Positions 15,190-61,733 of a DNA stretch of 64,000 bases are shown in pieces (positions within the stretch are counted from its first letter, which is position 1; every line of letters starts with the position of its first letter). The position numbers were made by a program, and so were the translations under genes. Below the pieces are notes generated by a model. That model had not been told where the DNA came from, did not search any database, and worked only from the letters and a program-made list of their open reading frames with translations. Origin of the DNA: Welwitschia mirabilis (lineage: Eukaryota); the NCBI GenBank assembly GCA_051453625.1, contig JBOZIK010000001.1, positions 47,009,378 to 47,073,377 of the forward strand. The letters run 5' to 3'.

Positions 15190-18170
15190 TCTATAAACAT
15201 TATTCACTTGTTTTATAGAAAAGATAGAAATATTTATTTTCTCATCTATAACTTCATATTTTGATTTTTTAAAAATTACTTTGTGACCTTTGTCACATAA
15301 TTAACTCACACTCAATAAATTATGTTTCAATCCATTTACATAAAGCACATGAATAAGTTTAGTCAATTTACCTTCCTTGATGCATTGTGTACCTTCTATC
15401 TTTTCCTTTTTATTATTTCCAAAAATAACTTCTCCTCCATTTGTTCTCTTTAAGTACTGAAAGCTCAATTTTTCTCCTGACATATGCCTTGAGCAATCAC
15501 TGTCTAGATACCAACTGTTCATACATGATCCTCTGAGAGCTATTTATGTTATAAAACTTTGAAGATTGTTAGGTCTAACCCACTTAGTCTTATTAGACTT
15601 AGGTGGTACACTTTTCTTAGGAATAAATTTTAAAAGGTAATTTACTTAAAGTTTCTTAAAACAAGTATTAACTATTTAGTTCTGCAAAAGACTTTAAATG
15701 ATCAAATTTACCACAAAAATTACATGAAAGATTAGAAGCATACTTACTCTTCCAGTTTACCTAATTTTGAGATTTTTATGAACTAAAGCCAATACTTGAT
15801 CCATCTCTAGTAAGTTTTTGTACTTCAAGCATCTGTTCCAATTTAAAAGAGCTACTATAGAATTTATTAATAAAAAAAGGAAAGATATTTTACCTGATTC
15901 ATTAGGTTAATGTTGTTAAATTTTAGCACATTATATTTCTCTTTCAATTCCTCCTTTTATTTGGTGATAGTCTTCATTATTTTGTTCAACTCATTTATCC
16001 TCTTAGCTAGCTTTTTACATTACTTATATAACTCCTAACATGTATCTCCTAATTCATCCCCTTCTTCATTGGTTATATCCAAATCATTAGGCATTGATGT
16101 GCTAACATGTTTGAGTGATGATACAAATGTCACAGAGAATAACCCTCTATCTTTGTCTTATTTTTAATCTGAACATCTTTTATCATCATCATGATCATTA
16201 TCCCATGTAGTAATGAATGAGGGATTCTTTGATTTTTTATTATCTTTCCTTATGTTAGGGCACTCATTTTCCATATTATCAAATCCTTTACATGAGTAGA
16301 ATTGGATCTCTTTACTGTTTTCTTACTCCTTTTTAGATAACTCCTTTTTTTATTTCTACTTGATTATCCTTCCTTTTTCTTTCTATGAAAAAATTTTCTA
16401 AATCTTCTGGCTAGAAGAGTTACTTTATCATCATTCAAGTTATCATTTGATATATCAGTTCTATAGTCTTCCTGCATAAATTTTAAATTAATACCTTTCT
16501 TTCTATCTTCAATAAATTTAAGATCATAGATTTGCAAATTATCTTAAAGTTCTTCCAATGCCATTGCATTAATGTTTTTTGCTCTCGTCGATGGCTATGA
16601 TCTTCAGATTGAATCTTTTAGGTAGGGATCTCAAGACTTTCCTTACCACTTTTCTTTCCTCTATGCATTCTCCAAGGCTTATCATTGAGTTTACAATATC
16701 AGTAAGTCTAGTAAAAGATTCATGTAATGTCTCTTCTTCATCCATATGGATATCTTTAAATTTTGAAATAAGCATCTAAAGTTTTACTTATTTTATAGTT
16801 GAGNNNNNNNNNNNNNNNNNNNNNNNNNNNNNNNNNNNNNNNNNNNNNNNNNNNNNNNNNNNNNNNNNNNNNNNNNNNNNNNNNNNNNNNNNNNNNNNNN
16901 NNNAGGTTAATGTTGTTAAATTTTAGCACATTATATTTCTCTTTCAATTCCTCCTTTTATTTGGTGATAGTCTTCACTATTTTGTTTAACTAATTTATCC
17001 TCTTAGGTAGTTTTTCACACTCTTCATACAACTCCTGACGTGTGTCTTCTAACTCATCCTCTTCTTCATTAATCATATCCAAATCGTTAGGCATTGATAT
17101 GCTAGGAACATCTTTGAGTGATGGCATAAAAGCCATGAAAGACAACCTTTTATCTCTGTATGAGAATTGACCTGAATAGCTTTTTATCATCATCATTATC
17201 TTCATTATCTGAAGTAGTCATGAATGAGGGATTTTTTGACTTTCTATTATCTTTTCTTGTGTTAGAGCACTCATTTGCTATATGTCCAAATCCTTCGCAT
17301 GAGTAGCATTAGATCTCTTTCCCCTTATCTTGCTTCTTTCTTTGTTTTAAATGACTTATTTTTGCATTTTTACTTGATTCTCCTTCCTTTTTCTTCTTAT
17401 GAAGAAATTTTCTGAATCTTCTAGCTAGAAGAGCTACTTTATCATCATCAAATTCCTCATCTGATCTGCCAGATCTATAGTCTTCTTGCACACATTTTAA
17501 AGTAATACTTTTCTTCTTATCTCTAATAAATTTAAGCTCATAGGTTTGTAAATTACCTTGAAGTCCTTCCAGTGCCACTGCATTAATGTTTTTGCTCTTT
17601 TCGATGAATGTGACTTTTGATTTGAATCTCTTAAGTAGGGGTCTCAAGACTTTTCTTACCACTTTTCTTTCCTCCAACATTCTCCAAGGTTTGCCATTGT
17701 GTTTATAATATCAGTAAGTCTAGTAAAAAATTCCTGCAATGTCTCTTCTTCATCGATATGGATATCTTCAAATTTTAAAACAAGCATCTGAAGTTTTGCT
17801 TGTTATACTGTTGAGATTTCTTTATGTACTACTTCAAGAACATCCCATACTTCCTTGTCATGGTTATAGTTTAATATGTAATTAAATTCATCTACACATA
17901 CTTCACAAAATATGGCATTAAGAGCACAACATCTATGGTGGATTTTGACTTATCAATGGTTGTCCATTGGTCTTAGGATTTAGGAACTAGGATAGTGTTG
18001 TCAATTACATTAGTTTGGATTAACATAGACATAGTGTAACCTTTGTAGATGACTTCCTCTATGTTGGCATTTAATGATATAAGAAATATTCTCATCTAGC
18101 TTTCTAATAAGTACAATTTGATCCATCGAATATAGGTGGATGACTAGTGGAAAAATTATCAAATGGATTA
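15190..18170 (-). pseudogene. Sirevirus gag (present twice, either side of a gap) and aspartic protease
   Basis: N-terminus PPIFDGSN..Y*KARMRIFL. UBN2-type RKVVRKVLRSLPKRF occurs twice (~16600-16650 and ~17620-17670). CCHC CYSCEGFGHIANEC at ~17265-17306. Protease WYLDSDCSRHMSGEK...VLYVNGLKHNLLSVS at 15301-15522. Confidence 0.88.
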
Positions 18171-19722: not shown

Positions 19723-20429
19723 NNNNNNNNNNNNNNNNNNNNNNNNNNNNNNNNNNNNNNNNNNNNNNNNNNNNNNNNNNNNNNNNNNNNNNNNNNNNNN
19801 NNNNNNNNNNNNNNNNNNNNNNTAAAATTGATATCAAAATGTATTACATAGTTTAGAAACTCTATTAATTAAAGCTTACAAAATGTGGGTTATAACATTG
19901 TGCTCTCTTCATTATGGTTAAAAATTTAAGTTATGACAATAAACGTTGAGACAATTATTCCCCATGAATAATTGAGACATAGCTAGTGACTAATATATCA
20001 TAACTTATACATTAAAAAAAAAAATTATTCTAGTATGTGATGGAATGTGAATCTAAAGATCTTCTATTAAATATTGTGTATAATTATTACATTTTATTTT
20101 GACAAAGAATAAAGATACATAATTTTAAAATCATTTGAAATTATCTTATCAATTTAATAAGTTATTTAGGATGAATTTCTTTTAATGAAATTGATATGAC
20201 CATAGGCAAATAAAAATATTAATGAGACGAGGATTTGGTGGATCTAGAGTGTAAGAAGAAATGAGGGCTTGGAAGACCTCAAATCAACAAGGCTAGTTTT
20301 GATTCCTGGTCATGACACAGGGGGTGATTTGGCCACCAGATAGTCTATCTATGGGTAAGTTGTGAAATTTTTTGAAATATCTGTTTTGATCCACTTTACA
20401 AATTCTTTCAAGGGACTCGTTCCCCAAAA

Positions 20430-21530
20430 TGGAGATGACTTAGTTCTCCAGGGAATAACAAAACCCTAGTTTTAGATATTGATGAAGGTTCTTGCTTTAA
20501 AATTGAGAATAAACTCTAGTACAATTTAATTAAAAAGTTCATTTCATTTGATATAAGAAGTAGGCTAGATCAGATCAGAGGATAGGTGACAACTAAATGG
20601 ACAGGAATCAATAAAGTTAAAGTTATTACTATGCTAGAAGAACTGGTGATTTTTGAGTTCGATAATAAACTAGATCGGGATGAGATAATCTCAAGAGGAT
20701 CTTGGTTCTTTAGCATGAGGGGTCTTGCCTTAGCCAAATGAATGCTAGGGATACAATCGGACTCGAATCTATTTAGAAAGTTACCTATATGGATTCGCAT
20801 TCATAAGTTTCCCTTAAAGTTTTGGGATGAATATATATTGAGGAAAATTGTATTCTAGTTTTATGAACTGATCAAGCTTGATAGAATTACCATCAAATAG
20901 ATGAGACTGGTCTTGGCTAAGTTCTATGTTTAGATGATTCTAGAGGATACAAAGGAGATACAATCCATAAAATTTAGATCTAAATGGAGTATCTGTGATT
21001 TTAAAGTTACTTATGAGAAACTTCCAGTTTCATGTAATGTTTGTGGAAAATAAGGATACCTTTTCGAGAGATGTGTTTCTTCTGAAAAGAAATGCTCTCA
21101 TTATGGTAGAATGGGCCATTTAAGAGAAGAATGTAAAAAACAATTAGTTGATAGTGAAGAAAAAAAAAGGAAATTTGTACTTTTTGTGGGAAGACCAAAT
21201 ATAATTAGAGCATATATTAGCATAAACAAAAAAAAAAAACTTAGTGAAAAGTACTATGGCTTTCCCCAAGGAAACTAAGAAAAGTAAGAAAAGGAAGCTG
21301 TAGGAGATGAAGTACAACCCCTTTCAACCTCTTATAGATGAAGAGGACTCTCAGCAATCTTAAAATCCACTAAATACTAATGAGCCTAATAATGTGAAAA
21401 TTTAGATGAGAGGAAGGCCTAGCAATAGAACCCTTTGAGAAAGGGAAACAATAGAGAATGTGGTCAATAGCTCCCAAGCTACCATTAAAGATATACTCAA
21501 AAAAGGTTAAGCACCTAGAAAGGGGTAAAA
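20430..21530 (+). pseudogene. LINE ORF1 (DUF4283-like + zinc knuckle)
   Basis: VIFEFDNKLDRDEIISRGSWFF...LPIWIRIHKFPLKFWDE and YEKLPVSCNVCGK*GYLFERC (~21012-21075). Confidence 0.85.
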
Positions 21531-21539
21531 ATAGACTCA

Positions 21540-24500
21540 ATGAATTGTCTTTCATGGAATTGCAGGGGATTAGGGTCCTCTTACAAGAAAAAGAAACTAA
21601 TAAATCTTATTATTTAAATTAATTTTTATTTAGTTTGTTTACAAAAAAAAAAAAAAAAAAAAGGTGATATGAAAATAGAGATTCTAGGAAAGCAGTGAAA
21701 TTTTTTTAACCTATGTAGCCCAAGATAACTCAGGACTCTTCATGATTTTTTTAAAAAAAGAAGGCAGATTTAATTAATAGCAATAAGGACCACATATAAT
21801 CTTTCTTAAGGAAGAAAGCTGAACTATAACAAATATCTATAGTCCTCAAAATAATCAAGATATAGCTTTTATCTTGGAGGAATTACAGTAGATAGTGATA
21901 GATAAATCTAAATGGCTCATTATGAAGGACTTCAATTAATGTCTACATCATTAATTAAAGTCAAAGGGTAATAACTGGAATTCTAAGAGAGCTTCAATCC
22001 TCAAAGAGTTTTTAGCACAGAATACTCTTATAGATATCATTATTTCTAGATGCAAATACACCTGGTCTAATAGAAGGATAGGCAACAATTTAATCATGTT
22101 TAAGATTGATAGAATCCTTGTTGGAAAGGAATTAGTTAAGATCCTAATTGAAGCCTGTGATCTAAATAGAATAGCTTCAGATCACCATCCTATCAGACTT
22201 AGAGTGGGGATGATTAGACCCTGAAAAACTTTGTTTTACATGGAACGGTATTGGATTAATTAGACAAAAACTAGAATGTTGATGAAAAAAAAATCTAGGC
22301 CCAGTATGATGGGACACAACTCTTAACCTGTTTTTACAGAGGCCTTAATACCTTAAAATCCTATATAAAGGACTAGAAAAAGAAAGATAAAGAAAGGTTT
22401 GATTTCAAAGTAGATCTTAAAGAAGAAATCTAAAGAATTCAGGCTGAGAAAGAAGAGGAAAAAGACTAAGATAGACTCTGTAATAAGAAATATTAGTCCC
22501 TATTGGAACTCCAAGAAATAAATGCTGATGAGAAAAATTATTAGAGAGAATGATCAAGGATAAAATTACTTAAATAAAGGGAAAAGCATACCAGGTTTTT
22601 CTTCCAGTAAGTTAATCAATATAGATCAGACAATAGGATTAAAAGGCTTACAATCAGAGGCCATATAACTGAAAACAAACAGGACATAGCTAAGGAAATG
22701 TTGGCCCACCTTATAAGAATTTAGGAATAAAACAATATCATCTCTCGCCTCATTTCAGAAAATAGGAGGACTTCAAATGAGAACAATTTCCAACTTATTA
22801 AATCCTTAAGCAGAGATAAAGTTCTGTCAGTTGTGACGTCTATGAAGAATAATAGAGTTCTCGAGTCAGACAGGTGACATGTTAAACTTTTCAAATCTCA
22901 CTTTTTCATATTACGAGATAATCTTTAGGACATTATGCAGGATGTCTTTCATAATAAATAAATTCCTAGGAAAATGAATAGAGCCAGGATGCTTCTTATC
23001 CCTAAAAAAAGGAACTTTAATAAACTAGAGGAATTTAGATCTTAGATATATATATTGTTATTTATATAATATTTGTGAAAATCATGGTTGGATGTATCAT
23101 CCCGTTATTGCCCAAGGTAATTTTAGAGAATTAACTAGCTTCATTCGATCTAGGTATATCTGGGACCAAATTATCTTGACTCACAAGACCATTCATTTTG
23201 TTAAAAAACATAAATTTCTTTTTCTTATTGCTAAAATGGATATTATTAAAGCATACGACTCTGTTAGTTGACAAGTGTTAGAAAGTATCCTCAGGAAAAC
23301 TGGTTTTCATCAAGACATCATTAATCTTTAGCTAATTATACAAGCATCAGCTAGATTTAGTGTGGAGGTTAACAATCACAAGTCCAAATTTTTTTAGTAG
23401 GTCAAGGATTAAGATAGGAGGACCTTCTATTCTCATATCTTTTCTGTTTTGTGATGAATGTTTTAAAGGTCTTCTTAAAGAGTCATGAAGTTACAGGAAT
23501 TAGAATTAGAGGTTAAAATTTCATCAATAATCACCATGCAGATGATACTATCATTATGATCAAGGCATTATATTAGCAATAAAGAGCTATCAATAATTCC
23601 ATTAACCTTTTTGTGGTAGCTACAGGTCTCCATACTAAGTGGAACAATTCAATAATCTATACCTTGGATAAAAACAGTATCAGAGGGGTCAAAATTGCTA
23701 GAATCCTAAACACTAAACTAGGAGACTTGCAAGATATCTACCTTGGAATTCCCCTCGGAATTGGTATAATACCCTTACTTGGAACTACATCCTTAAGTTT
23801 ATTCAAAGATAATGCAACTCTTGGTAAAATAATTTTCTCTCATCTAAAGTAAAGATTGTTCTGACAAATTTGTGTCTAATCTCTTCTTTCAGATATATAG
23901 CTTCCATTATCGCCTCCCCGTAGAACATCATGCAAAGAATTAATAGAATCTTGAAGGAATTCATATGGTTTAAAGATAAAGACCAAAACCATATTCACCT
24001 TTGTAAATGGAAGATAATAGCTTATCCAAGGGAATCAGGAAGATGGGGGATTCAGAGACCAGAGGACTGTCTCCTTACAGGAGCTTACTAGATCTTCAAA
24101 AGAATATCTGAGGGAGGATAACCTTGGAGTAATTTAATTAATTACAAATAATTAAATTGGAGAACCAATTAGGGAGATTCCTACTTGAGGAAACATTTTA
24201 GCAGAGCTTGAAGACATCTGTTAGACTTAAACATTTGTCATATAAATTCAGCCAAATAAATCTTTCTAAAGAAATATGGGAAAGATGACTCCTATAAGAA
24301 TTTCTAGAAAGGCCAAATTCTGGAAAACATTAAAGTATTCTGTTGGCTGAAGGATCATCATAAAGTACTCACTTGAGATTAACTATGTAAGATGGGTTTT
24401 CAAGTGGAAATAGCCTATTCTATTTGATAGTCTTGTCTTAAAACTACATACCACTTATTTCATCAATGCACTTAAAGAGTTAATGATAATTATGAAGAAG

Positions 24501-25080
24501 TACTACTAGACCTATAACATATTTGACACCTACTTAAATGACGGGACTCATTTGACTTATTGACAAATTTGGAGAATAAAAAATAATTTTATTTTCAGTA
24601 GTGTCTCCTTATCATTTCCTTTAAATACTACTAGGAGGATCAAACATTACCACTCTCAAATTAGAATTGTAATGGAAGCTACACCCACTATCGAGTGATT
24701 TGATTCTTGTCTTTTTAAAGGTTGTCCAAACTTGTGAGAGAAAGTGCAGGTTCTGGGATGGGTAACGCTCTTGTACATCCTTAAAAGGGAGCCAAGGGCT
24801 AATATTACCCCTTTTTACAGATGTTAGAGAGGGCAGCACACAATCTTTAGAAGAATTCCCATTGAAATAACTAAAGATTCTCTCTTAAAACTTCTGAAAA
24901 TTCCTACATCAGAAGAAAGGATTCCCCTTGGAAGCCTAGGGCAATGAGAGATGCTTCATTTCTTTCTCAGTGATGTCCCTAAGTTTGCTAGTGGACACAT
25001 CAGTCGGAAGGCACTACCTCCACCATAGGGCTTAGGGGCTAAATTAGTCGATCAATATTTCATTCAATTTGGTTGTTCCT
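21540..25080 (+). pseudogene. LINE ORF2 (APE endonuclease, RT, zf-RVT, RNase H-like)
   Basis: Starts MNCLSWNCRGLG at 21540. Endonuclease motifs YTWSNRR, KIDRIL and ASDHHPI. RT motifs KMDIIKAYDSVSW, HADDTII (23535-23555, YADD equivalent) and YLGIPL. The C-terminal part is weaker. Confidence 0.85.
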
Positions 25081-25675
25081 CTAAGCTCTAAGGAATTCAC
25101 TTCACATTTCTCAAATCTCTAGACCTAGGACTCTAAGTGAATTTACCTTTCTTCTTTATTCAATCCCTTTGACAAAAATATACAACTAGATATTTTGGAT
25201 TCATTTTAATGCTTTGATGAGTTACTAATGAGATTAGGGTAAGAAAGGCCCCTTCTTCACCCAGGTGACGCCACCTATAATAGACATCTCTAAGGAGAAC
25301 ATTTAAAATAAGAGCCACCACTAAAGAAAGCCCTCAATCTGAGGAGAATGTTGCATAGAGTAGTCCCAGTCAATAAGAGATGACTCTACCCTTAGACCCC
25401 CAGATAGAGGAGTCAAATTCACCTCCAACATAGAAGGAGAAAGCCTAGAGACAGCTTAAAAGATAGTTAAGGAGATAACTCAGGAGCATACTAAATACTA
25501 GGAGTAAGGGAATCAAGGCTAAGCCTATACTCAGTTCGAAAAAAGCCCCAGTCTTACATAGAATTCAACCACAGAATCCTTTTTAGCAGAAAGGTAGCAT
25601 AACCCATAGGAGGATATAGATATGGACACTACAAAATGGAAGGTCATGCTTGCAACAATGCATGGGCTGAAGAGA

Positions 25676-25831
25676 TACCCCTTCCTTATCTTATAAATCT
25701 ACCATAGAATCCTTTCATAAGCTATCAAATCTAGTTATAGAAAGAAAGTGCTTAGATTAACTCTACATAAAAATTAAATAGGTGCTGAAGAATTCAATAA
25801 GGTAAATTAAGCTTTTGAGATGTTATCTAAT
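25676..25831 (+). pseudogene. DnaJ/J-domain-like reading frame inside the LINE 3' region (decayed)
   Basis: YPFLIL*IYHRILS*AIKSSYRKKVLRLTLHKN*IGAEEFNKVN*AFEMLSN. Spacing matches the J-domain consensus, all four stops are TAA (consistent with CAA>TAA), and the HPD position reads TLH. Confidence 0.6.
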
Positions 25832-28800
25832 GAAATGGGCCACTTATTACTAGAACATAATCATGACAATTTCTTCCCTTTTTGTAGAGGACACTAGTCC
25901 TCCATACTTTAGGTCATTACTCTAGCCTAATTTCAATTTCTATTAGTTCTAGCATTATGGAGTGTTTTCGCCCCTAGTTTTATTAGTTAGTAGTTTGTTC
26001 CAGCATTTGATGCAGAATGCTCTTTAAGATAGTCAGTTTCCCATTCTTCGTTTGTTTTCCTAAGAGCATTTTCACCCCTATTTTCATCTCTGAATTCCTC
26101 ATATAATGTTCTCCCTTTCTCCAAATAGTTAACTTTTCTTGTCAATTTAGGGCATTTTCGCCTCCTTAATGTAAATTTTCTAGTTTAATATACTCCATTC
26201 TTGTTTTAAAAAAAAAAAGGTAATGAAATAAATTTATTTAAAATAAAATAATAAATAAAAATTTTATTAGATAAAGGAATCTCTTACATCATTACTCAAA
26301 AACATGACAGAAGCCTTACTTAAACTACCTAGAGTGAAAAAATTAGATTACTTTGCTAAAGTAATTTAATTCTTGAAAATGCTAAAGAACTTGTTCTTTT
26401 TATTGGAACACCTGGTTTTAGATGACCCTACAAAACTCTTACCTAAGGGTAGTAGGTGCATTTCACTTAATAATTCTAACAGCATGTTGATGTTTTCTGG
26501 GTGAGCTCACCAAAAGCTCTTGTAAAGCTTTGCATTCTATATTATTTTTTTTTATATTCTCCTTATCAAAGCTGAGTGTAAGTAGACTAAATGCAAGATT
26601 TATATCTTAAAGTTGATTCATTTATTTTCTAATACATGCATCTGTCTAGCTAGTTTACCTTAGAACACATTGTAAGTCAAGTCTCCTTGATTACATTGCC
26701 AATGTAATTCTTATATCCTAACCCTTAGATACTTAGCCACCAAATGATGCACCATGGGATTAAAACTTGGAGGAATAACCCCATTTTCATAGCATTCTCT
26801 ACTAGCTTTAGTAATGAAGGTATTCAATGTATCTAAGACCTTAGCAATTGATTTATAACTAGAATATAATGAGTATTACACCTCATTCTTAGGCCTAATA
26901 GAAATTTAAGGCAATTGGGGTTCTACAGTTCTAACACACATATCAATTTGTGTAGAACCTAAGTCACAAAGGAAACACTTCATCTTCTTAACACCTAAAG
27001 AAGCAATGAAAGAGTAAGGGGCAGTAGATGCCATAAGGGTTCAACAGAAAGGAATAATAAGGATTGAATAGGATTAAGTAAAGAAACTCTAAGACTCAAT
27101 ATGGAGAATAATGAATAGTTAGCATAAAGGAATGAAGTTTATAGCATAAGTATTACTTAATCTAGTTGACAAGTGTGATTTATCTTAAGATACTCAGTGC
27201 ACATGTGTTCAGTAATGAAGCAACTACATACTTGTTCTATCCAACATCCAAGATATGCCAATTGTACAACAATGATCTTCATATTAAGATAGAATTCATG
27301 GAATTTCAAACTAACCAAGTTTCAACTTGAAGCTGGAACTTTAGCTCAATTTATGATCAGCTCATTTTTTTTCCAAGTTGCAAGTCTTTACAGGGATCCA
27401 CTAGATTTAGTTATCATTGTCAATTTCCAAGTGATTAATTTAAATCCAAAAATTTTTAAAATTAAGAAAAACATTTAGATAATATTATGAAAACATGATT
27501 AGTGGTATAAAAAAATTATATATTTTTAGAGGAGAATAAAAAGATAAATGTTACTTGTATTGTTCCTTTGATAGCACAGTATCATAAGCTAAAACTTTAG
27601 AATAAGTTTATTTAGTTGATTGACACTAACTTAAAGTTAAAACTTTAAATAAGATTTTAAATTAAGTTGATAAATGTAAAAATTTATTCTTCTAAATTTC
27701 ATATTGCTTAAGCCTACATAAATCAATATCACTTAATTGACTAACATGAACTTCAAGTTAAAACTTTGAGTCAAATTTCCAACCAAACCATTACGCTGTA
27801 AGCTCAGAAAGTTAACAGACACTAGTTCAAAGTCAAAAATTGAGTCAGATTTCAAGTCAACTAATTTCTATTAAAATAAGAGACCTACTACTAAAGAGTG
27901 GTTTTCTTTTCTTGATGATCCTTATTGACTTTTTAATATATCTTCTGTCCATGACTACACTTCTTTATTTTATTTCATTTACTTATATTTAAGTGGGTAT
28001 GATTCAAAGGATCTTATCAAGAACTTTTAGGTTCTCAACAATTTCCTTTGAATCCTTTGCTTACTTCACAATGGATTTAACGACCCTTGTTGAGAACTTG
28101 AGGGTTCTCGATGATTCTCGTTGAATCCTTTTATAGGTGAAGAGTGGCAACCAATTAAATATGATACTTTATTTGTCTAATGTATCACTTAAAACCAAAC
28201 TCAATAACCCCCTTCGCATTCTTGATGACCCCCATCGAAAATTAGCAAATGACTTATTTTCATGTTACCTAATCCATGCAGGCTCCATAATATCCATTTC
28301 ACATCAACTAATTTCATTATTATTCTCTTTGCCACCATGTCATTCATTTTCCACATAAACACCCATGTAGGAATGATTACTATATTTTGGTAAAAGGTTT
28401 TACTATCTTTAAATGTGTGAATTAAATGCAATAGTAGGTATAAGTTTTTACCTATTTTAAGTAGCAAATAGATATGTAATTTTACTTTTACTTATGCATT
28501 TTGCTTTCTTGTGCTTGAGTTCTTATAGCATTATGGAAGAAAAACTTTACATAAATAATTCATATTCATCATTGTTTCTGGTATTTTTATTTTTAAGCAT
28601 TCCGGAGTATGTAAATATTTAACTTAAGGGGTAGAATGAACAACAAAATTTTGTAATAAGAAAATGCTGGTAAAGTGTAAATTCTTTTAGGGTGATATTT
28701 TCATGAGATTTTCTATTTGATGACATTTTATATATTCTTTTGATGCCTACTTAATGAGTGTGAAAGTATTTCTCAAACATTATTACTTGATTAGTTTTTA

Positions 28801-57808: not shown

Positions 57809-59444
57809 AAACATATAGAAGCATGTGTTAAGACATAGGCACATGAAAGGTGGGCTCATGCATGAACAACGTATTAACCTAAAAGACACCCAGCAATGAG
57901 GGAGGAACAAGATTCCATCAGCAATTGAAAANNNNNNNNNNNNCCTAAAATAAGCCTCTCATTCAAGAGCCCATGGCTGCTCCGTGACAACAGACGTAAA
58001 TGTGAGTGTTAACGCCTTTCACTTGTTGCATTTCTTTCAGATTTCCAAATCCAACCAACCCAAGAAAACGAGTGTTCGGTCTCCGAATCAGAACAAAGGC
58101 GCCTGCGAGTCATGTCAAATACCATTTGCTTTAAATGGCAAAACGGGAGGGCAAGCGGATCCAAGTACATGTGGTACAGTTATTCGCAGGCCGCTTAATT
58201 GCCGTCCACCATCGAGACGCAATTTCAGACGGCAGAGATTCTCTTAATGCAAATAGGGACTCCCTCAGTACCGCCTTAACAGAGGCATCTATCTAACGCG
58301 CTTTATTTTGACTGAAAGCTCTGCGTATTCAAAGTGCAAGCCATTATTAAACAGGCAAACTACTTTTCCAATCACAGGTTTGGATGCCATATTTCCTCAT
58401 TATGGAATGCCCGATTTGTTAAGCAAGCAACTTGACTTCCCGCAGATTGTAAAATTGTTATCTGTGGCAGCGGGGAGGGAATGAATCAGAGCACCTGCTG
58501 CCTATGACCGCAAGATTCCAGTGGGATTGGCATTTGCGATATCCTCTTCGAAAAAGCACCCAAATCGGACAATGCCGTCCACTTGAGTATTTTATGCCGG
58601 TCCGTCCGTACCGCGTACGCCAGCCCTTCGCGGCCTTCAATACGGTTTCGCGACGTGGTTTTCAGGGGCAGTGACAGTCAGCCACCGTCACGACACTTGA
58701 TGGCGACGTGACTGCGTTGAAGTGGATGCAAAAGATGTTGTGTTGGTTGTCAACGTTTTCCGGCACGCAGTGATGGGTGGTTTCCCGAGCAGCATTAAAG
58801 GAATGTCAGGTGAGACGGGCAACTGTTCGGCTGTGGTTTGCCCTCAGGTTCCTGTATCTGCAGAATCTTCATTTTTTTTAATGCGTCTCTGCTAAACGAA
58901 GTGGTCGACTGACTGTCATTGCCGTTTATCTCTTTCTGATTTAAATAAAAAGGCGTTTGCCCTTGACGGATCTCGGATATGTCCTAGTGGGGTGCCCTCG
59001 GACTGTGACTCCTGTCTGATTTTTAAGATAATATTATAGAGATACAAAGTAAAGGCGAGAGCAAGAAGGTTCTGCGTTTCTGACTCAGCCGCGCACTAAT
59101 CCTGTAAATAAATCGAATTGCGAGATGAGGGTGAAGGAGCAATTCAGAGATTAGCGGAGAATGTTGGGTCATGTTGATTGTCGACGATGATGATGCATGC
59201 GTTGAGTTTCCTCAAATTCCTGCTGTAGAGAAAAGAATTCGTACAGAGGCCGTGCACTAGGACGCTTCTTTCATTATCTCTCTCACTGTGCTGGATATTT
59301 TAATCGTTTTTTAGCTTTCTGGTTTGCGTGCTCGACGGCATTCCACTTCCACTTCCACGGTCTTCCTTATTTCAGTTTGGCTGATAACAACCGCGGATGC
59401 CGCACCATTGACACCTTCTGGAGCATCTTATCGTGTGTCATTGC

Positions 59445-59451
59445 TATATAA
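59445..59451 (+). promoter_or_regulatory. Probable TATA box of the ALMT gene
   Basis: TATATAA (context CTATATAA) about 70 bp upstream of the ATG at 59520. Confidence 0.55.
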
Positions 59452-59519
59452 CCACGCCTTCCCTGCCCAAAACTCTCATTCGGTCCCCCCATCCAATCGC
59501 GTTTGGGTGGACTTTCGCA

Positions 59520-61733
59520 ATGGCTATGGCTATGGCCGCTTCCACTGCAACTTCTAGTGCTGTATCTCCATCTCCCCCTACCACCAAGAACGTCCACAAC
59601 AATAGCAACAAAAACAACATCGAATGGAAGATCAACGTTCCAGAGGACGCCTCTATTAAGATCATCCCTCTTAGAAAACCAAAGATTGTGACTGTAATGG
59701 ACTCTGCTAAGAAATGGGTGTTGGGTCTGTTGCAGATGCTGTGGAAACTGGGCACAGATGATCCAAGAAGGATCTATCACTCAATCAAAGTCGGCGTTGC
59801 CCTGACGCTCGTCTCGCTCTTTTATTTCATGCACCCGCTGTATGTCAGCGTGGGAGGCATGGCTACCTGGGCTGTGATGACCGTCGTTGTGATCTTTGAA
59901 TTCACTGCCGGTAAATGTTCTCGCGACTTCAATCCGTGTTCATGTTTCGATCCTCGCCAATCATCAATTTAGCGGCAAAGCAATTCGTAATCTAAACCTT
60001 TGTTGTTTGCACTCAGGCGGTACTTTGAGTAAAGGATTGAACAGAATGGCTGCCACTCTGTTGGGCGGTCTGTTAGCTGTAGCGACCAATTTTGTTGCAG
60101 ATGTCGCAGGCCGAAGGAAGGAGCTGGCTGAGCCTGTTCTGCTTGGCGTAGGAGTCTTCATCGTTGGTAAGAAACTCGTTACTTGGCATACTCTTTGTCC
60201 GTTCGTGGGTTGTCGTTGGAGATTTGCTAAAAACATTAAATGCATCGTTATTGGGTATGAAATGCGCAGGCGCAGCGGCAACCTTTGTTCGCTTTGTGCC
60301 GAAGATGAAACAACGGTACGATTATGGGGTACTGATATTCATATTGACGTACAGCTTCATGACGGTTTCCGGTTTCAGAGAGCAGAAGCTGTTTGCGATG
60401 GCGTGTCAGCGTCTTGCCACCATCATCATCGGCTGCGTTCTGTGCATAATCGTCAGTATCGTCTTCTGCCCCATCTGGGCCGGCGAAGATCTCCATTTTC
60501 TTCTCATTAACAACACGAAATCCCTCGCCTTCTCCCTCGAGGGTGCGTAAAGTCGTAAACCAATTCCTTAATTTAATTAACAAATGCAAACGCAGGTGAT
60601 TACTTCTCGTTCTATTGGAATTACATTAAATTACATGCGTCCCAAACGTGGTCTCACAGGCTGCGTTGCTCAATACTTTGCTGAGGAGGAGGAAGAAACT
60701 CTGGATGAAGAGACAGAGAAGGCCTGCAACGGCTACAAATGTGTGCTTAACTCGAAGGCCTCCGAGGAATCACTGGTGTGTCTGCTGCCCTTCATTCGTT
60801 ATAATTTTGTTCGCAGGACGGTCTCTGATGCACCCCTTTCAATTGTCAAATCGGCAGGCAAATTTTGCAAGATGGGAACCACCACACGGCAAATTCAGTT
60901 TCAGATACCCATGGAAGCAATACGTCAAGATTGGAGCAAGGTTACGCTACTGTGCTTACTGTGTCGAGGCTCTCAACGGCTGCCTCAATTCCGAGATCCA
61001 GGTTCGTAGTATTTACTTGGACATGGACCCCTTTGGCACAATAGCTAAAAAGCAAGAGCAACAGAAGCTTTTTAACTCGCTTTCGCTTTGCGCTATAATA
61101 TATTTGCAGACTCCACGCTTTTTGAGAGAACAGCTGAAGGCACCATGCATGAGCATAGCGGCAGAGTCGTGCAGGGTTCTGTTAGATCTGTCAGAATGCC
61201 TTCGCAGCATGAGCACTTGCCCGGAGCCACGCCTTATGATGGCCCGCGTCAACAAGGCCGCTCAGTCTCTTCACAACTGCTTGGCTTCGCAACGGGATCT
61301 GCTCCTAGGCAGCAGCAACAGGTGGAAGCTCGAAAACCCCGAAACTAAAACATCTGACCACAAAACCTCTCCCAACAACACAAACGCAGAATCGATGGGA
61401 GGTCGGGTGACGGTAACGATGGCGTTCATGGACACGCTTCCTTTGGCCACTGTTGCGTGTCTTCTTACTGAGATCGTTGCCAGACTCGAAACCGTCGTCG
61501 TCGAAGTCCACGAACTCGGTAGACGCGCTTCATTCGCAAAGCTTCTCGTCGATTCTCATCATAAAACCCAGCGAGTCCATAACAATCCCATTTCCAGCAT
61601 GAATACGAATTCCAGTGTTTCTGAAACCGCTGCACGCTCTCATTCGAACGCTCCAACGATCGGTGAGGCGAACACGACAACAAGCGCGACAGTTACAGCC
61701 CACCGACAACACGACGCCAACATCTCCTCCTGA
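59520..61733 (+). CDS. ALMT: Aluminium-activated malate transporter family anion channel, 565 aa; exons 59520-59910, 60017-60166, 60270-60542, 60660-60775, 60858-61001, 61110-61733
   Basis: All five introns are GT-AG with compatible phases (1,1,1,0,0), and the spliced length is 1698 nt. Family motifs: [92 protein letters not shown] and [10 protein letters not shown]. Clade or ortholog not assigned. Confidence 0.95.

Follow-up and report, generated by a model that had tools for sequence, protein, structure and literature searches.

The window, the whole 64-kb stretch of Welwitschia mirabilis DNA that was analysed, was found to contain a decayed full-length L1-type LINE which, together with everything up to its poly(A), occupies positions 20192–26218 of the forward (+) strand. 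It is surrounded by the sequence of a very AT-rich, deamination-eroded gymnosperm genome. ORF1 includes a DUF4283 domain (Pfam PF14111; 20565–20927, +; E 9.5e-19, 67.8 bits, above the cut-off) and two CCHC-type zinc knuckles (21033–21134, +), which were recognised by eye in the translation and have no reported profile match. A region of ORF2 at 21549–22200 (+) carries motifs, seen by eye, that suggest an endonuclease-like (APE-type) region; an A20 run (21643–21662) lies inside it, and no Pfam match to Exo_endo_phos was obtained there at E ≤ 10. The reverse transcriptase core (23128–23560, +) was identified from a match to RVT_1 (23128–23379; E 0.0042, 17.3 bits) and an ADD box found by eye, and has the deepest read coverage of the stretch (360–490). 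The last detectable domain of ORF2 is zf-RVT (PF13966; 24257–24472, +; E 0.0019, 19.2 bits). The RVT_1 and zf-RVT matches are below their own cut-offs yet occur in the correct order on one strand, and the low scores can be attributed to decay and frameshifts. These matches, led by that to DUF4283, agree with the original prediction of an L1-type plant LINE on the + strand.

Beyond zf-RVT, the LINE 3′ region extends from 24473 to 25255 (+) with no recognisable domain, at a read depth of 49–240 overall and 97–127 in its last three bins. An RNase H-like end of ORF2 had been placed here, near 25080. However, a search of 24400–25300 in all three sense frames, with E values allowed up to 10, gave no match to RVT_3, and no other unrelated Pfam family gave better than E 0.02 in the same frames. 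Since no ORF2 domain can be detected beyond 24472, ~1.7 kb of sequence precede the poly(A), and not the extra ~0.8 kb first described. The repeat unit does terminate at the expected position, in a poly(A) of 11 A (26208–26218, +), and 44 X1 contigs turn unlike right behind 26218, where the agreement is only 0.45, indicating that the 3′ end of the family lies at the poly(A). An exact 9-mer found by script at 20183–20191 and again at 26221–26229 is a weak candidate for a target-site duplication (TSD), with a rough chance estimate of ~0.1. If this TSD is real, the sequence from 20192 to 26218 is a composite unit, consistent with its one-strand domain order and poly(A) end. Searches of the 64-kb window revealed no second copy of the LINE or of the J-like stretch described below (blastn, tblastn and nhmmer), and no Rfam family (0 across the whole window).

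Read depths were available from three individuals (runs X13, X14 and X15; summed over both orientations in X13), and the depth of the LINE body is ~50–490. Immediately following the LINE 3′ region is a low-copy, GC-richer (42%) segment of ~290 bp (25256–25544, +), with a depth of 8–10 over 25256–25537 versus 127 before and 156 after it. Depth drops ~12-fold at 25255/25256, where there is no A-run, and rises ~15-fold at the A6 run (25539–25544) in which the segment ends, one of only three runs of A≥6 in 24400–26300. The remainder, up to the poly(A), is a high-copy unit (25545–26207, +) that carries a reading frame (25622–25897, +) resembling the J domain of DnaJ co-chaperones; X13 depth is 135–156 over 25538–25960, 28 over 25961–26101 and 100 over 26102–26242. 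For the J segment (25538–25960) the individual values are 156, 148 and 135 in X13, 158–169 in X14 and 124–147 in X15, roughly matching the end of the LINE 3′ region. The absence of this segment from other copies, which the original prediction had named as evidence against itself, is contradicted by this similar depth in three individuals. Reads at least 99% alike were few (9 of 9089, 20 of 9486 and 7 of 9104 in the three runs), and by our own arithmetic this gives a single-copy coverage of roughly 0.25–0.7x, from which a few hundred copies of the J segment would be present. The J-bearing sequence of ~0.67 kb (25545–26218) has thus been multiplied, its copies numbering no fewer than a couple of hundred.

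The low-depth segment is possibly a later nested insertion, or possibly this LINE copy's own rare 3′ end. GC content was considered as the cause of the dip and discarded, as the trend is only weak (Spearman −0.32, p 0.09) and depths of 49–157 occur in other bins with the same GC. A repeat at the borders of the segment was also discarded as a TSD, as its similarity lacks significance, with 25% of shuffled sequences scoring as high. No tRNA or SINE head was detected near 25460–25545, and no 3′ tail common to the LINE or low-depth segment and the J unit exceeded shuffled sequences. One X1 contig matches on both sides of the segment (joint 25262 to 25607, with 53 letters on the shorter side); 0 raw reads cross this joint in each of the three runs. 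Collinear contigs also occur at other depth dips (24685 to 24835, 25835 to 26168, 23583 to 23702 and 26491 to 26621).

The reading that we favour, at about even chances, is that the J-bearing sequence is this LINE family's own 3′ region and that the piece at 25256–25544 is a later insertion or a variable stretch. The J relic would derive from a host-type J domain, closest among solved structures to those of class A/B Hsp40 proteins. A piece of a host J-protein gene would have been captured by read-through (3′ transduction) or template switching and would then have spread with the LINE by LINE-type retroposition, the segment at 25256–25544 having been inserted afterwards or having varied. We infer the host origin, the capture mechanism and the linkage to the LINE in other copies. 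In favour of linkage, the depths flanking the low-depth segment are similar (127 versus 156), the relic is on the same strand as the LINE, no poly(A) is present at 25255, and the candidate 9-bp TSD brackets 20192–26218. In addition, the low-depth segment is GC-richer and has a terminal A6, as a younger retro-insertion would. Against linkage, the support consists of one contig and of similar depths, which the unrelated flank beyond the poly(A) also shows (27–190), and the 15-fold step falls exactly at A6 25539–25544, like a boundary between two separately retroposed units.

It is possible, on the doubtful side, that this boundary is what it resembles. The LINE would then end at the A6 run with a rare, subfamily-specific 3′ UTR, and 25545–26218 would be a poly(A) retroposon of another kind, which entered the LINE tail or was co-inserted there, in which case the adjacency says nothing about the LINE family. 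A small J-protein mRNA might have given rise to such a retroposon as a non-autonomous element, or it might be some other element, copied with its 5′ part truncated. The change in depth from 8 to 156 within ~20 bases of an A-run of a kind found just three times in 24400–26300 fits such an origin, as does the mRNA-like layout of the unit, in which 77 bases precede the ATG and the 92-codon frame is followed by 310 bases and the poly(A). Retro-insertions in the same orientation preferentially target LINE tails, no raw read joins the LINE to the J unit, and neither the LINE 3′ region nor the low-depth segment is similar to the tail of the J unit. However, a separate unit requires a second, 12-fold step at 25255/25256 that has no A-run and stays unexplained, makes the equal depth on either side of the low-depth segment a coincidence, and leaves the bridging X1 contig without an explanation. 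Among the best-supported rows listed, there is also no pile of at least 33 contig ends at the 5′ border, compared with the 44 at the 3′ border. Processed pseudogenes of a single plant gene usually reach far fewer than hundreds of copies. Here, a poly(A) and an mRNA-like layout are present, but the copy number runs to hundreds instead of being low, and no separate TSD is discernible.

The translation of the J-like frame reported in the original prediction was reproduced exactly from the ATG at 25622, giving 92 codons interrupted by TAA at four sites and closed by TAG (25895–25897). In the majority of family reads, position 25892 is T and position 25897 is A, and the terminal codon is therefore TAA in most copies. 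When the profile search that had been proposed was performed with TAA restored to Q, PF00226 was matched with E 5.2e-6 (26.9 bits; 53 of 63 profile positions), and with X at the stops E was 1.5e-4 (22.3 bits). The stretch matched by the Pfam profile is 25685–25834 (+), profile positions 4–56 of 63, and the ATG precedes it by 19 codons. The score is narrowly under the PF00226 gathering cut-off of 27.8 bits and far better than any decoy. In a control Pfam search of 9009 residues from other frames and regions, translated likewise, E was never better than 0.09, and among a further ~3200 residues the best match to an unrelated family had E 0.018. A PDB phmmer search with the J-like frame returned 2och_A, the J domain of Caenorhabditis elegans DNJ-12, as the best match (E 1.2e-5), and 17 of 24 among the PDB matches listed carry DnaJ, HSP40, Sis1 or Ydj1 names, while the best PDB E of three decoy frames from the same 276 bases was 0.58–0.88.

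An AT-rich, Lys/Leu-rich and helical-looking frame could come to resemble a J domain by chance once its stops are read through, and several points are in keeping with this. The score falls short of the Pfam cut-off, the HPD motif is missing, and the frame was chosen by eye with its four stops read as the most favourable residue. An AlphaFold2 single-sequence model of the frame, with three long helices, is uninformative (pLDDT 51.8, pTM 0.28) and too poor for a fold search. However, the match persists with X at the stops and covers most of the profile, many different J proteins were matched independently, and neither the ~12000 decoy residues nor the three decoy frames yielded anything comparable; chance is therefore improbable. 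The lack of any profile match, the other outcome that the original prediction had named as evidence against itself, was not observed, although the match is just under the Pfam cut-off, and the resemblance of the decayed frame to a J domain, as judged from sequence comparison, is probably real.

The window copy of the J relic is non-functional and as decayed as the LINE. It has four stops, all within a 54-codon core, and no uninterrupted coding frame is left, stops being about as frequent here (4 in 91 codons) as in the other five frames (5–13). At the position of HPD, set by alignment with 2och_A, the codons at 25760–25768 (+) read TLH, as originally noted. The observed/expected CpG ratio is 0 in the J segment and 0–0.28 in the LINE, and the similarly low values suggest that the J relic is of the same age as the LINE.

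An alternative genetic code (table 6, in which TAA and TAG encode Gln) was considered, since all four stops are TAA and the frames lengthen under table 6. It was rejected as the exons of an ALMT-type gene in the window stay open over long distances when read with the standard code, in one case for 367 codons, the ALMT-type exon is 64–67% identical to gymnosperm proteins, and TGA and frameshifts also break the LINE frames. As the host is a gymnosperm with the standard code, TAA and TAG in the J-like frame are taken as decay and not as recoding. Old repeats in this genome are heavily eroded by cytosine deamination. A general caution is that TAA/TAG-rich frames in deamination-eroded genomes are relics and not recoded genes.

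According to the original prediction, a functional J-domain protein that recruits or decoys host Hsp70 may be encoded by the LINE family, either as an ORF3 or as an extension of ORF2, with the window holding a decayed copy. This is unlikely. The sense orientation of the relic, with an ATG 19 codons ahead of the J match, a J score (26.9 bits) that beats those of the RT (17.3) and zf-RVT (19.2) of the same copy, an abundance like that of the LINE 3′ region, and a stop in most copies where the frame of the window copy ends all speak for it. However, there is no open frame here, and HPD, which is required to stimulate Hsp70, reads TLH. The polar linker predicted to connect ORF2 to the J domain (25230–25620) is neither coding-like, with 7–9 stops per 95–96 codons in every sense frame, nor family-wide, being the rarest part in the reads, and the RNase H domain described as preceding it was not detected. 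No related open protein was found when 25223–25897 was compared by phmmer with a library of 1.84 billion representative proteins (0 matches at E ≤ 1e-3). A word-index protein search with the J region gave no candidate, and one with the RT piece gave 1184 candidates, none of which scored. Two degenerate J-core patterns, each matching the window once, gave 0 and 0 matches in two scans of metagenome contigs, collections that probably lack the DNA of this plant. A literature search found no description of a LINE carrying a J domain. No evidence was found that the J relic ever worked for the LINE, and recruitment or decoy of Hsp70 by a LINE J domain would be purely conjectural. Taken to its full extent, this reading would have the J domain of a host enter a gymnosperm L1 lineage in the form of a short 3′ reading frame, running from its ATG through the J domain to a stop and followed by a UTR of ~300 bases and the poly(A). 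The lineage would have retained this frame while spreading to hundreds of copies, either to bring Hsp70 onto its own ribonucleoprotein or to interfere with transposon silencing that depends on J proteins, as with SILENZIO, and the copy in the window would be a deaminated fossil; we consider such a history improbable.

A one-off event, in which a DnaJ pseudogene exists once only or this one LINE copy alone acquired its 3′ transduction, would account for the lack of a second copy within the 64-kb window, but is contradicted by a J-segment depth of 124–169 in three individuals when single-copy depth is below ~1, and is highly improbable.

LINEs seldom gain new protein domains, the well-supported cases being RNase H, helicase and methyltransferase, and each of these gains revealed something of the dealings between mobile elements and their hosts. 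If true, a J domain in a LINE would link a retrotransposon with the Hsp70 system or with silencing that depends on chaperones. The more modest result shown here, a probable fragment of a host chaperone domain copied hundreds of times by retroposition, is a clear case of gene-fragment amplification.

Among known systems, the J domains of class A/B Hsp40 proteins are the closest in sequence. The relic is ~41% identical to 2och_A over 44 residues (counted from the alignment), a stretch that takes in the basic helix II, KN behind the loop and the pattern of helix III, and has human DNAJA1 (2m6y_A and 2lo1_A) as its further best solved matches. It differs in having TLH for HPD, four in-frame stops and a sub-cut-off score, and in not being followed by a G/F region, a zinc finger or a C-terminal domain; at this score, assignment to class A/B is only a lead. 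Chimeras formed by mammalian L1 via 3′ transduction or template switching share the order of LINE body, short internal A-run, foreign sequence and new poly(A), possibly within one TSD. However, L1 3′ transductions are normally private or low-copy, whereas the foreign piece here is in hundreds of copies and includes a recognisable domain relic.

Retrotransposons that have gained domains include R1 LINEs of insects, which have a viral-type helicase at the C terminus (PMC4686597), elements with a DNMT (PMC5890265) and an orchid Ty3/Gypsy element with an m6A demethylase domain (PMC9289625). As in the reading favoured here, a host or viral domain follows the enzymes of the element in sense orientation and is carried along as the family multiplies, but those cases rest on intact conserved frames and the present one on a decayed relic only. 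An L1 ORF1 interactome paper mentions a DnaJ homolog in passing only and has no bearing here (PMC3753637). Viral J domains, known from the polyomavirus T antigens, show that a mobile element can gain from a J domain; the window copy differs in that the required HPD is absent. In plants, the J protein SILENZIO represses transposons with MBD5/6, according to a review (PMC8616336), and thus a J protein takes part in transposon silencing; either parallel would offer a conceivable rationale for the capture of a J domain by a LINE.

The reading frame at 25622–25897 on the plus strand (the J frame) proved to be as described in the original prediction, with ATG at 25622, 92 codons, four internal TAA codons, and TAG at 25895–25897. 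When TAA was read as Gln, the frame matched the Pfam DnaJ profile at E 5.2e-6, with frame residues 22–71 aligned to profile positions 4–56 of 63, and replacing the stops with X still gave E 1.5e-4 (22.3 bits). Decoys were far weaker, but the score of 26.9 bits for the Gln reading is below the curated Pfam cut-off of 27.8 bits, and the proposed J-domain likeness was thus upheld at a sub-threshold level. When the whole PDB was searched with phmmer, 24 sequences matched at E<=10, 17 of them with DnaJ, HSP40, Sis1 or Ydj1 names, two with uninformative names and five unrelated; the best were the J domain of DNJ-12 (E 1.2e-5) and DNAJA1 (E 0.0024). As controls, 9009 residues of reverse frames and downstream flank read in the same way gave a best E of 0.09, ~3200 residues of sub-frames of the adjoining LINE gave a best unrelated E of 0.018, and three alternative readings of the 276 bases of the J frame, two sense and one antisense, gave best PDB values of E 0.58–0.88. 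As these controls gave nothing comparable, and the J match outscored the LINE's own reverse transcriptase and zf-RVT in this copy, the likeness very probably reflects real homology, and a chance resemblance to a J domain is improbable.

This J copy is not a gene. The HPD position reads TLH (25760–25768), and the frame contains 4 stops in 91 codons, where the five alternative frames have 5–13. Downstream of the frame there is no G/F region, zinc finger or DnaJ C-terminal domain, and a single-sequence AlphaFold model was uninformative (pLDDT 51.8). As this copy scores below the cut-off, lacks HPD and is not open, the relic lies outside the functional J-protein family.

A heavily decayed L1-type plant LINE was found upstream of the J frame on the same strand. 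Its ORF1 includes DUF4283 at 20565–20927 (E 9.5e-19) and two CCHC knuckles recognised by eye. An endonuclease-like stretch, seen by eye only, had no Pfam match at E<=10, the reverse transcriptase at 23128–23379 reaches only E 0.0042, and zf-RVT was found at 24257–24472 (E 0.0019). An RNase H-like end had been placed at ~25080, but none was found in the three sense frames of 24400–25300, and the last ~1.7 kb before the 11-base poly(A) at 26208–26218 is free of domains. A 9-base repeat at 20183–20191 and 26221–26229, for which the rough chance estimate is ~0.1, is a candidate target-site duplication for a unit of 6.0 kb (20192–26218). Within the LINE there are an A12 run (21228–21239) and, in the endonuclease region, an A20 run (21643–21662), the latter probably an expanded A-rich codon stretch and not an element boundary. 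A further A11 run (20014–20024), ~170 bases upstream of the presumed 5' end of the LINE, may be the tail of a neighbouring retroposed element.

The window also includes a multi-exon ALMT (aluminium-activated malate transporter)-type gene at 59400–61733 on the plus strand (47% GC), the long exons of which are open in the standard code. One exon shares 64–67% identity with ALMT proteins of Cryptomeria, Ginkgo, Pinus taeda and Taxus, and its best matches, barring one multi-domain composite entry, were gymnosperm ALMT proteins. A ciliate-type code, considered as all internal stops of the J frame are TAA, was rejected in favour of the standard code because the ALMT exons are open and the LINE frames also hold TGA and frameshifts. 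The repeats are 23–36% GC and nearly devoid of CpG, with observed/expected values of 0–0.28 for the LINE and 0 for the J segment (25538–25960). On these grounds, the window is gymnosperm nuclear DNA using the standard code, with old repeats eroded by C>T/G>A change. Window-wide, CpG observed/expected in repeats is ~0.2, consistent with long-term deamination. The genome size estimated roughly from reads is 3–7 Gb. The window is a gapped scaffold with ten N runs (899 bases in total, five exactly 100 long), and a 133-codon open frame at 17309–17710 on the minus strand resembles, by eye, a Ty1/copia-type gag relic.

Public reads were placed on 23000–27200 at >=80% likeness; they came from three whole-genome runs with the same species label (X13, X14 and X15; ~1.94 Gb of each), together with contigs of a fourth (X1). 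Reads >=99% alike numbered only 9 of 9089, 20 of 9486 and 7 of 9104, and single-copy coverage is therefore well below 1. With both orientations summed, X13 depth was 360–490 over the reverse transcriptase core, 166–240 at 24128–24691, 49 at 24692–24832, 97–127 at 24833–25255, 10 and 8 at 25256–25537, 156, 148 and 135 across the J segment, 28 at 25961–26101 and 100 at 26102–26242. X14 and X15 were concordant (J segment 158–169 and 124–147; low segment 6–11). The J segment, at a depth of 124–169 in the three runs, is present beyond this locus and numbers at least a couple of hundred copies, which removes a private transduction or unrelated single insertion, the outcome named in the original prediction as a refutation. 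In most copies, T at 25892 and A at 25897 make the terminal codon TAA. As 44 X1 contigs become unrelated sequence just past 26218 (agreement 0.45), the poly(A) is the 3' end of a repeat family. Essentially the whole 4.2 kb examined with reads is repetitive, and the DNA past the poly(A) (26243–27200) is itself a different high-copy repeat (depth 27–190).

The chance is about even that the J relic is part of this LINE family's own 3' region, gained by read-through or template switching. Depth is alike on either side of the low-depth segment X (25256–25544), at 127 versus 156, and one X1 contig is collinear with both of its flanks (joint 25262->25607). Collinear contigs were likewise found at every other depth dip (23583->23702, 24685->24835, 25835->26168 and 26491->26621), indicating that a dip usually falls within a single unit. 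Segment X (~290 bp, 42% GC, with an A6 run at its end) is ~15x rarer in reads than both neighbours and may be a small, younger nested retro-insertion, an assumption that on its own accounts for both depth steps. The polar linker of the original prediction was not borne out, being the rarest part of the stretch in reads, with many stops in all sense frames.

It is possible, but doubtful, that the J unit (25545–26207) is instead a separate poly(A) retroposon at the tail of the LINE. The depth steps from 8 to 156 within ~20 bases of the A6 run at 25539–25544, one of only three A>=6 runs in 24400–26300, and a junction between two units that retroposed independently would look the same. Equal depth is weak evidence for the LINE link, as the unrelated flank past the poly(A) has similar depths (27–190). 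The similarity of the two borders of segment X is not significant, GC content fails to explain the dip, and the LINE 3' region (24473–25255) and the tail of the J unit share no sequence. The 25262->25607 joint appears in no raw read of the three runs, but ~88% of placed reads match over part of their length only, so split reads are easily missed and little weight attaches to their absence. Other arrangements take up the remaining probability.

A passive mechanism is favoured, in which a fragment of a host J-protein gene, with start codon and J domain, would have joined a retroposing transcript and been amplified by the LINE machinery, with deamination since then eroding it as fast as the LINE. 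It is unlikely that the sequence encoded a functional ORF3-type J protein, whether to recruit Hsp70, as originally predicted, or to interfere with J-protein-dependent silencing, a pathway that exists in Arabidopsis according to a passage on SILENZIO in a review (PMC8616336). The J region had no relatives at E<=1e-3 in a library of 1.84 billion proteins and no candidate in a word-index search; the assemblies and transcriptomes behind these collections have yielded no predicted intact family protein, although short frames may have gone uncalled. Two scans of metagenome contigs for the J core also gave no match, with patterns that do match the window, but such collections probably contain no DNA of this plant. 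No sign was found that the J sequence ever served the element.

Phenomena suitable for comparison include 3' transduction, chimeric retrocopies and viral J domains. A full-text literature search found no account of J domains in LINEs or other retrotransposons. Retrotransposon domain gain is described for a helicase in insect R1 (PMC4686597), DNMTs (PMC5890265) and an m6A demethylase (PMC9289625). The J relic is best seen as a fragment of a host gene that LINE-type retroposition has amplified.
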